Part shown: one piece after another, positions 56,388 to 56,692 of the stretch
Layout of the letters: every line of letters begins with the position of its first letter
Numbering within the stretch: position 1 is the first letter of the stretch
Sequence record: PV467749.1
DNA: 64,000 bases
Origin: a phage
Direction: 5' to 3' (one strand)
Program-made: the position numbers and the translations under genes
The notes under the pieces: generated by a model
The model's input: the letters and a program-made list of their open reading frames with translations, nothing else
What the model was told of the DNA's origin: nothing
The model's database searches: none

Positions 56388-56692
56388 TGAGCCATCTGTG
56401 AGTCGAACACAGTACCTAACGATTCGTATAATCTATAGTTTTCACTATAGTACGGACTATATCATCATCCCATAGGGATGCCGGACGCTAATGATGTATT
56501 ACACAGTAAGATCGTACTGTACCATCTAGTCTCTGCACCTTCCCAATACGCTTATTGGGCTTGGCTCAGGATTGTCATCACCATTACGTGTTAAGATTTC
56601 CCTGAATTCATCCAGTTTTTCAATCACCATTACTGATGAAAGTCACCATTGTCGATGAGTCGTTTGCTCTAACCACCGTGAGCTAATGGCCC
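56388..56692 (-). tRNA. tRNA with CAU anticodon (Met or Ile-lysidine type) interrupted by a group I intron
   Basis: 5' exon (56655-56692): acceptor GGGCCAT, D-arm GCTC-ACGGTGGTTA-GAGC, anticodon stem AACGA, loop CTCAT; 3' exon (56388-56424): AA-TCGTT, variable AGGTA, T-arm CTGTG-TTCGACT-CACAG, acceptor ATGGCTC, discriminator A. The exons only form a cloverleaf if 56425-56654 is removed. Confidence 0.7.
56425..56654 (-). ncRNA. Group I self-splicing intron (~230 nt) in tRNA anticodon loop
   Basis: 5' exon ends in U, intron ends in G; conserved core elements on minus strand: R-like GTGCAGAGACTAGA (56526-56539) and S-like GATATAGTCCG (56453-56463), with P7-type GACTA/TAGTC pairing; no long ORF inside. 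Confidence 0.65.

Follow-up and report, generated by a model that had tools for sequence, protein, structure and literature searches.

A group I intron of probable phage lineage in the anticodon loop of a jumbo-phage tRNA(CAU) gene

Introduction

Group I introns have long been known both from bacterial transfer RNA (tRNA) genes and from the protein genes of phages. Here we consider a phage locus in which the two settings meet, a tRNA gene with a CAU anticodon that is interrupted by a 230-nucleotide (nt) group I intron, in sequence record PV467749.1. The window, i.e., the whole stretch of DNA analysed, is 64,000 nt long and belongs to a PBECO4-like Escherichia coli jumbo phage (Asteriusvirus); its positions 44000-64000 are 98.3% identical to phage CMSTMSU. 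An original prediction, made from the letters of the window alone, had placed the interrupted gene at 56388-56692, and these coordinates hold, with the refinement that the whole of it lies on the minus strand.

The 2014 review of the field states that all phage introns then observed sit in protein-coding genes, despite the many tRNA genes that phages carry, and it bases an argument on endonuclease target choice upon that rule (PMC3984707). Jumbo gut phages have up to ~18 group I introns per genome, in protein genes (PMC12880540), and the 2026 survey of bacterial tRNA introns leaves out phages (PMC13011429). In the passages of the Lak megaphage preprint consulted here, the tRNAs are said to carry "enigmatic" introns, phage tRNA introns are called previously unreported, and no family is assigned to them after an Rfam test (Devoto et al., bioRxiv 10.1101/356790). 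The Lak megaphages resemble the window in having interrupted tRNA genes, in very large phages, that bacterial tRNA finders miss; they differ in that their introns are enigmatic, while the window intron is an unambiguous group I ribozyme. The expectation that interrupted tRNA genes are uncommon in phages, voiced in the original prediction, agrees with both sources (PMC3984707, bioRxiv 10.1101/356790). No published account of a phage tRNA gene with a group I intron came up in our search, which most subscription journals lay beyond, so that a prior report is possible. What is unusual about the element in the window is its host gene; the ribozyme itself is ordinary.

In gene and site, the closest described introns are those of the Azoarcus type in bacterial tRNA-Ile(CAU) genes, which, like the window intron, are inserted after U36 (PMC13168695, PMC3984707); the same site is seen in the Azoarcus-type introns of our loci L185, L195 and L230. 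These introns also pair a GUG-containing guide with CAU, have no open reading frame (ORF) in their ~200-230 nt, and depend on the anticodon stem to align the exons. Unlike the window intron, however, they have no P7.1-P7.2, carry 11-nt tetraloop receptors, are G+C-rich and sit on bacterial chromosomes. The introns of Twort orf142 and Vibrio terL, on the other hand, share with the window intron the insertion between P7 and P3' (P7.1-P7.2), the small size, the lack of an ORF and the phage host, but they interrupt protein-coding genes; the window intron interrupts a tRNA anticodon loop, and its P1 is therefore built on the anticodon itself. The group I introns of cyanobacterial and plastid tRNA-Leu(UAA), cyanobacterial tRNA-fMet and alphaproteobacterial tRNA-Arg(CCU) also lie in the anticodon loop, and share with the window intron the core sequences of Q/P6, AAUCCUGAGCCAAGCC, and R, GGUGCAGAGACU. 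They differ in the tRNAs that they interrupt, their insertion positions (34/35 and 33/34; PMC13011429), their IC-type architecture and their cellular hosts.

Our reading of the locus, drawn from sequence comparison, is that a phage tRNA(CAU), most likely tRNA-Ile2, is split between positions 36 and 37 by a self-splicing 230-nt group I intron of phage lineage. We give this reading a probability of roughly 0.85.

Results

We begin with the two tRNA exons, assigned by ARAGORN on the spliced sequence. Exon 1 (56692 to 56655, minus strand; 38 nt, GGGCCATTAGCTCACGGTGGTTAGAGCAAACGACTCAT, 3' end ...GACUCAU) supplies the 5' strand of the acceptor stem, the D arm, the 5' strand of the anticodon stem and the loop residues C32, U33, C34, A35 and U36. 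Exon 2 (56424 to 56388, minus strand; 37 nt, 5' start AAUCGUU) supplies A37 and A38, the 3' strand of the anticodon stem, the variable loop, the T arm, the 3' strand of the acceptor stem and the discriminator A73; CCA is not encoded. The intron (56654 to 56425, minus strand; 230 nt, start CGACAAUGGUGAC, end ...AUUAUACG) is inserted in the anticodon loop between tRNA positions 36 and 37, matches Rfam family RF00028 and contains no conserved ORF. Its first base is a C preceded by the exon U, and its last base is a G (56425); the U before the intron and the terminal G had both been claimed from the letters.

The joined exons give a canonical 76-nt cloverleaf with the anticodon CAT, the anticodon stem AACGA/UCGUU and the loop CUCAUAA (ARAGORN on the in-silico spliced sequence). 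An intron-less allele in phage WPEC5 aligns with the window through 56655 and picks up again at 56424, and its tRNA, which scores 54.2 bits with the Rfam tRNA model, is near-identical to the joined exons of the window. Together these two results confirm the proposal of two tRNA halves, 230 nt apart, that form a cloverleaf after removal of 56425-56654. The junctions are fixed by the intron-less alleles of WPEC5, CMSTMSU, ELP-22, EJP2 and RaK2, and the junction CUCAU/...G/AAUCG (slashes mark the splice sites) is unique because the first base of the intron differs from that of exon 2 and the last base of exon 1 differs from that of the intron. A different, uninterrupted tRNA gene had been named as the result that would speak against a split gene; no such gene is called at the locus by ARAGORN in default mode or by the tRNA model of Rfam. 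The intron mode of ARAGORN does find the gene, but as a tRNA-Arg(ACG) with the intron shifted by 2 nt, and we reject this parse because the shifted intron has no terminal G and the intron-less alleles read CUCAUAA.

The intron itself is recognized on the minus strand by the Rfam model RF00028 (Intron_gpI), whose gathering score is 50, with 99.1 bits and an E of 1.9e-24, which puts the match well outside chance, and the scan that had been suggested as a check thus bears out the group I identity. The same model gives 100.5, 104.1 and 89.9 bits to the related introns of TH47, Muenster and OU509535, and, in the same run mode, 100.9, 97.4 and 63.6 bits to the Twort orf142 introns, which are experimentally self-splicing. 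The remark that 230 nt is near the minimum for group I was overstated, as the ORF-less bacterial tRNA introns that we retrieved measure 198-310 nt. Across the intron locus the window shares 99% identity with TH47; the intron alone is 100% identical to the TH47 intron and 91-93% identical to those of Klebsiella jumbo phages.

To describe the fold, we number the intron from 56654 (position 1) and check every helix pair against the sequence; all helices are on the minus strand, and pairing frequencies refer to an alignment of 31 sequences (the window, five other jumbo-phage copies and 25 IMG/VR relatives). P1 (56643 to 56658) pairs exon UCAU and intron C1 with the guide GGUGA (intron 8-12), with a U-1·G9 wobble at the 5' splice site, and the intron-side pair C1-G8 becomes G-C in OU509535. 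P2 (56624 to 56639) is a hairpin of intron 16-20 with 27-31, in which 5/5 pairs have double compensatory changes; its strands read UCAUC/GGUGA in the window versus UCACA/UGUGA in the Klebsiella copies. The 5' 60 columns of the Rfam alignment place P1/P2 upstream of the tRNA and take exon 1 as an insertion. We reject this placement; in ours, P1 is built on the anticodon and P2 lies at 16-31, and these helices covary. The guide GGUGA (8-12) is repeated as the 3' strand of P2 (27-31), and the junction UCAU/C as its 5' strand (16-20), all within window positions 56624-56658 (minus strand); since both are present twice, the strands may pair in other ways, and there may be a cryptic 5' splice site.

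P3 (56481 to 56615; intron 40-46 with 168-174) is paired in 100% of cells, with double changes in 3 pairs, and encloses the P4-P5-P6 domain, the 5' strand of P7 and P7.1-P7.2. The stretch from P4 to P6a (56537 to 56605) holds the classical P and Q elements and is made of P4 (50-55 with 84-89), P5 (59-65 with 74-80), P6 (90-91 with 117-118) and P6a (96-101 with 108-113); P4 is invariant in the 31 sequences and 4/6 pairs of P6a have double changes. The R and S elements that had been picked out from the letters are present, R as GTGCAGAGACTAGA at 56538 to 56525 and S as GATATAGTCCG at 56463 to 56453. P7 (56454 to 56533; G122, the bulged A123 and 124-128, with 196-201) is 100% paired with one double change and forms a pseudoknot with P3; G124-C200, beside the bulged A123, would be the guanosine-binding pair. 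Between P7 and P3' stands a two-tier hairpin (56493 to 56526) with a conserved UAAUA internal loop, composed of P7.1 (129-132 with 159-162) and P7.2 (134-140 with 147-153). Another register for P7.1 (129-134 with 160-165) is only 47-71% paired in the relatives, and was replaced after each relative had been folded separately. P8 (56466 to 56480; 175-180 with 184-189) is a hairpin, 98.9% paired, with double changes in 3 pairs. The 3' end (56425 to 56453) contains P9.0 (202-203 with 228-229, i.e., G202-C229 and U203-A228), P9 (205-211 with 216-222, closed by a GAAA tetraloop) and the terminal G230 at 56425. In the Klebsiella copies the G-C pair of P9.0 becomes U-A and the G210-C217 pair of P9 becomes A-U. 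A 34-amino-acid (aa) ORF in the ribozyme core (56630 to 56526, minus strand) is most likely spurious, because the copies in the Klebsiella phages lack its ATG.

The next question is whether these helices are maintained by selection. Over the 31-sequence alignment, standard pairs fill 82.4% of the cells, compared with 28-46% when the partners are slid, and in 40 pairs both partners have changed; the observed values were not attained in any of 500 shuffles. P3, P4, P6, P7 and P8 are 98.9-100% paired, and double changes occur in P3, P6a, P7 and P8. RNAalifold on its own recovers P2, P3, P4, the base of P5, P6, P6a, P8 and P9, with compensatory changes in 24/44 of the predicted pairs. Between the E. 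coli and Klebsiella phage copies, at 91-93% identity, the substitutions are compensatory in P2, P5, P7.2, P8, P9 and P9.0. Such a pattern is what one would expect of a ribozyme under selection, and this comparison indicates purifying selection on the fold. To judge from its sequence, the element is a group I intron with a complete core (P1 with its U·G, P2-P9, P9.0 and the terminal G).

With this anatomy, the established chemistry of group I introns suggests a splicing pathway. In the minus-strand transcript, the guide GGUGA would pair with exon UCAU and intron C1, and an external guanosine, bound at G124-C200 of P7, would attack after U36. G230 would then take over the guanosine site, and the free 3'-OH of U36 would attack the 3' splice site. 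The anticodon stem AACGA/UCGUU would keep the exons together, and their joining would produce the loop CUCAUAA. RNase P, 3' trimming and CCA addition by the host, the latter needed because the window allele encodes no CCA, would then yield the tRNA. The host TilS would act last, converting C34 to lysidine so that the tRNA reads AUA and supplies AUA decoding capacity to the phage. The intron would spread or persist as a mobile element alongside a free-standing HNH gene downstream.

The last steps depend on the identity of the tRNA, which is probably tRNA-Ile2, with a lysidine-modified CAU reading AUA; the CAU anticodon of the original prediction stands, while the gene is most likely tRNA-Ile2 and not tRNA-Met. 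Identity of the window tRNA is 59/77 to E. coli Ile2 and 38/76 to fMet. The initiator features are not found: the window tRNA pairs G1 with C72 and has AACGA/UCGUU as its anticodon stem, whereas fMet has a C1xA72 mismatch and three G-C pairs in a row, G29-31:C39-41. The determinants of TilS and IleRS reportedly include C4-G69, C5-G68, U12-A23, C29-G41, A37, A38 and A73, all of which are present in the spliced tRNA of the window. Within the window, whose G+C content is 35%, AUA accounts for 22 per 1000 codons and 33% of the Ile codons of the long ORFs; with such codon use, a phage-borne AUA reader makes sense.

The same anatomy could instead belong to an elongator tRNA-Met reading AUG, which is the label that ARAGORN and most GenBank records give to the CAU alleles; default tools, however, call every CAU tRNA Met. 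The identity to metT is only slightly lower than that to Ile2, at 54/78, and the phage also uses ATG often, at 27 per 1000 codons. Against this, the best BLAST match of the spliced tRNA in each of 5,426 complete E. coli genomes is a tRNA-Ile gene with the CAT anticodon. At the discriminating positions the window has C4-G69 and C5-G68, the TilS determinants, and C29-G41, U12-A23 and A73, those of IleRS; metT has U4-A69, A5-U68 and U29-A41. The exons of the Klebsiella phage Muenster (66/79 identity) carry the complete and exact acceptor stem of E. coli tRNA-Ile2, and AUA, which is rare in E. coli, makes up a third of the Ile codons here. We consider the elongator reading unlikely and continue with tRNA-Ile2.

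Several points weigh against our reading of the locus as a whole. The isotype call comes from similarity and identity elements and not from an isotype-specific model, and the IA assignment given below rests on P7.1-P7.2 and sequence relatives, not on GISSD subgroup models. P10 is weak at best, and conserved U·U and A·G mismatches lie within P5. That the RNA splices, matures into a tRNA, acquires lysidine and is aminoacylated is a prediction from the sequence. The linkage of the intron to an endonuclease gene is not obligatory, since in RaK2 and K64-1 a 70.6% identical endonuclease follows an intron-less tRNA(CAU), and in Muenster the intron occurs without an endonuclease. Unlike WPEC5 and Muenster, the window has G2·U71 in place of G-C and no CCA; together with the decayed endonuclease gene, these may be taken as signs that the locus is beginning to decay. 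As general background, a weak P10 is usual for tRNA introns, and G·U pairs and an absent CCA are common in functional phage tRNAs.

Taken to its end, the signs of decay would mean that the intron splices poorly or not at all and that the interrupted tRNA is now a pseudogene, the relic of an old invasion, at a locus that decays along with its endonuclease gene. That gene has lost 483 bp, and intron-less or tRNA-less alleles are the majority among the Asteriusvirus records. The intron, however, is 100% identical to that of TH47, whose endonuclease gene is intact; every element of the catalytic core is intact, and the Rfam score equals that of the proven self-splicing Twort introns. The differences from the Klebsiella copies are, moreover, concentrated in compensatory pairs, which argues for purifying selection on the fold. 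A dead locus is therefore improbable, and the self-splicing intron in a tRNA-Ile2 gene remains our preferred reading.

We turn our attention to the lineage of this intron. In cultured phages, its nearest relatives include introns of Vibrio phage terminase genes, such as the terL intron of phage R16F (80% over 170 nt), with four group I matches inside a single terL gene, and a cyanophage psbA intron. The introns of Staphylococcus K-like phages are 75% identical over 120 nt (E 4e-11), and the Twort orf142 intron is 70% identical over 123 nt that include the segment of the internal guide sequence (IGS) and P2 (pairwise E 5e-10). The Twort orf142 introns reportedly fall in subgroup IA2. The 34 nt of P7.1-P7.2 take the same two-tier shape in nearly all of 21 distinct relatives folded singly, with many compensatory changes. 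In a crude, distance-based neighbor-joining tree, the introns of the window, Muenster and OU509535 group with phage coding-sequence and transfer-messenger RNA (tmRNA) introns and with Twort, and are set apart from every bacterial tRNA intron. P7.1/P7.2 are among the defining features of class IA (PMC3984707), and it is the covarying P7.1-P7.2 together with the clustering with phage introns that leads us to an IA-like assignment. We regard the intron, on these comparisons, as phage-type and IA2-like, and as having probably arrived at the Azoarcus site independently.

The site does invite another history. A scan of 100,044 species genomes with the R motif gives >120 loci, nearly all of them intron-bearing tRNA genes (63 tRNA-Leu(UAA), 16 tRNA(CAU) and 10 tRNA-Arg(CCU) among them), and the betaproteobacterial tRNA-Ile(CAU) introns have the insertion CUCAU/...G/AAUC, the same site as the window intron. 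That the intron is of the Azoarcus type (IC3) and was acquired by the phage together with a bacterial tRNA-Ile2 gene, as the shared site and isoacceptor in Sterolibacterium, Polynucleobacter and other Burkholderiales and the common Q/P6 and R core motifs would suggest, is very improbable: on shared columns the identity is only 52-53% to the Azoarcus type versus 63-72% to phage coding-sequence and tmRNA introns, the bacterial P3' follows directly after P7 where the window has a 38-nt segment (intron 129-167) with P7.1-P7.2, the IGS-P2 region of the window is Twort-like, and the canonical 11-nt tetraloop receptor CCUAAG...UAUGG is absent, with no CCUAAG in the window intron.

The intron is distributed unevenly among jumbo phages. 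In Asteriusvirus, the window, TH47 and Turkey5 have it, and WPEC5, CMSTMSU, ELP-22, EJP2 and others do not; in Alcyoneusvirus, Muenster, KP13-7, RCIP0023, phiKp_21 and OU509535 have it, and RaK2 and K64-1 do not. Some Asteriusvirus records (ph0011) have an HNH gene in place of the tRNA at this position. All seven cultured jumbo phages found to carry the intron-plus tRNA gene leave it unannotated in their GenBank records. The intron-less tRNA(CAU) of Asteriusvirus comes with two types of anticodon stem, AACGA/UCGUU and a C/G-rich GCCCC-type, with the other arms near-identical (CMSTMSU, L254, 2609-2685, and ELP-22, L009, 1609-1687, compared with window 56388-56692); from this comparison, the anticodon arm looks like a hot spot of recombination or selection.

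Downstream of the tRNA lies what is left of an endonuclease gene. In TH47 and Turkey5, an intact 234-aa HNH ORF begins 19 nt past exon 2, and the TH47 protein matches the PHROG 14913 HNH endonuclease over residues 1-149 (E 2.6e-56); against Pfam, the endonuclease gives just a sub-threshold GerE match. The window retains a 68-aa ORF (56368 to 56162, minus strand), which also starts 19 nt past the tRNA and consists of the start codon and the last 67 codons, i.e., the C-terminal part that resembles a helix-turn-helix (HTH). This remnant has no Pfam or PHROG match, and hence no recognizable HNH domain. The missing 483 bp were lost in-frame between two copies of AAAATAATGAA; of this 11-bp direct repeat a single copy is left in the window (56364 to 56374, minus strand), and TH47 and Turkey5 keep both. 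The comparison tells us that the endonuclease gene of the window is inactivated by the 483-bp deletion.

The boundaries of similarity around the intron are also informative. Similarity to CMSTMSU, the closest relative of the backbone, stops at 56665 and returns at 56159, and the cassette between (56665-56159), which holds the 5' half of the anticodon stem, the intron, exon 2 and the endonuclease remnant, is TH47-like. The T-stem pair of the intron-plus Asteriusvirus alleles is of the Klebsiella intron-plus type and not of the intron-less Asteriusvirus type. The cassette and the T-stem match are such as co-conversion during homing would leave, without being proof of it. OU509535 has a different HNH gene at the place of the endonuclease, and all four combinations of intron and endonuclease, each present or absent, occur. 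From the arrangements in RaK2/K64-1, Muenster and OU509535, it follows that the intron and the endonuclease are separable elements in a common hot spot.

The tRNA(CAU) gene stands in a minus-strand tRNA cluster with the order Ser(UGA), Ser(GCU), tRNA(CAU), Asn, Thr. A promoter-like site, TTGTTA-16-GATAAT (56717 to 56744, minus strand), lies ~25 nt upstream of the tRNA 5' end and is a weak match to the consensus; in a promoter and terminator scan, sites were no more numerous than shuffled expectation. A tRNA-like sequence at 58672-58750 (minus strand), 4 nt downstream of tRNA-Ser(UGA), scores 29.3 bits, which is the Rfam gathering score. ARAGORN makes no call there, both the D arm and the anticodon arm seem degenerate, and the sequence may be what remains of a tRNA. 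Among the tRNA genes, 58161-58647 (minus strand) encodes three tandem paralogous ORFs of 54 aa with overlapping ends, all starting MTHEEWM. The same triplet is annotated as hypothetical proteins in Turkey5.

Related introns are found in other viral and bacterial contigs. A 196,540-bp IMG/VR contig (L096, 1-830) has a tRNA(CAU) whose exon 1 ends in ...GGCACTCAT and whose exon 2 starts with AATGCCTGGG, split at the site of the window intron by a group I intron of ~790 nt (Rfam 74.1 bits). The ORF of this intron, which codes for a 179-aa HNH endonuclease, reads through P3-P5, and its product has the same HNH/zinc-finger/HTH layout as the TH47 protein. By its sequence, the intron counts as the second case of a phage tRNA(CAU) interrupted at this site, independent of the first. 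In two further IMG/VR contigs, of 218 kb (L053, ~2000-2300) and 361 kb (L071), tRNA-Thr(UGU) genes are split by IC3-like group I introns of 221 nt and 199 nt; the former reaches the Rfam gathering score with 65.3 bits and the latter falls short of it. The L053 intron and the window intron have an unusual P5 element, CUUAACACGUAAUGGUGAUGG, in common. Viral-contig tmRNA genes (L066, 7441-8016, Rfam tmRNA 67.7 bits; L102, 431-657; and L099) are split in the T-loop region by introns of the P7.1-P7.2 family. Near-identical introns at one site of one protein-coding gene, 74-80% identical to the window intron, are found in L121, L122, L069, L079 and ~15 more IMG/VR loci. A 145-kb contig recorded as "MAG: Klebsiella pneumoniae" (L191) has a G+C-rich, Azoarcus-type intron of 198 nt in tRNA-Ile(CAU), which is unexpected for Klebsiella, and this contig is probably mis-binned.

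Discussion

An ORF-less intron that adjoins a free-standing endonuclease gene, the adjacency that is characteristic of collaborative homing, is found in TH47 and Turkey5. The described cases are the cyanophage psbA intron with F-CphI and the Aeh1 nrdA intron with MobE, which likewise combine an ORF-less intron with a nearby free-standing endonuclease (PMC2988022). T4 segB is a similar endonuclease gene inside a phage tRNA cluster, but SegB is a GIY-YIG enzyme while the TH47/Turkey5 endonuclease is HNH. Unlike the known collaborative-homing systems, the endonuclease here also stands beside an intron-less allele (RaK2), and the intron also occurs without an endonuclease (Muenster). Scans of IMG/VR matched neither relatives of the endonuclease nor the exon-intron junction.

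One may go further and ask whether group I introns in the tRNA genes of phages are described here for the first time, with the intron and the HNH gene 19 nt downstream acting as a collaborative-homing unit at a site shared convergently with the Azoarcus-type introns. We put this forward as a tentative proposal, and as a whole it is rather doubtful. If it holds, the endonuclease would cut the intron-less tRNA(CAU) alleles of co-infecting jumbo phages, and repair would copy the intron, exon 2 and the endonuclease as a single cassette; the intron would give its carrier immunity. The identity of the site with that of the Azoarcus type would then mean that the CAU anticodon was captured as a substrate for P1 independently, by convergence.

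For phage biology, the window locus together with the tRNA-Thr(UGU) and tRNA(CAU) cases in IMG/VR means that the rule of introns in protein genes only is not absolute. Because the tRNA is invisible to standard finders and unannotated, the tRNA complement and the AUA-decoding capacity of such phages are under-counted. The use of the exact Azoarcus site by another lineage offers a case in which to study the part that P1 and the anticodon stem play in defining insertion sites. The series of alleles, with and without the intron and with the endonuclease intact, deleted or absent, occurs in phages of E. coli and Klebsiella that can be cultured, and makes a genetic system that is ready to use. This system suits the testing of collaborative homing and co-conversion, and also of the effect that an intron in the anticodon loop may have on the timing of tRNA supply and on exposure to anticodon nucleases.

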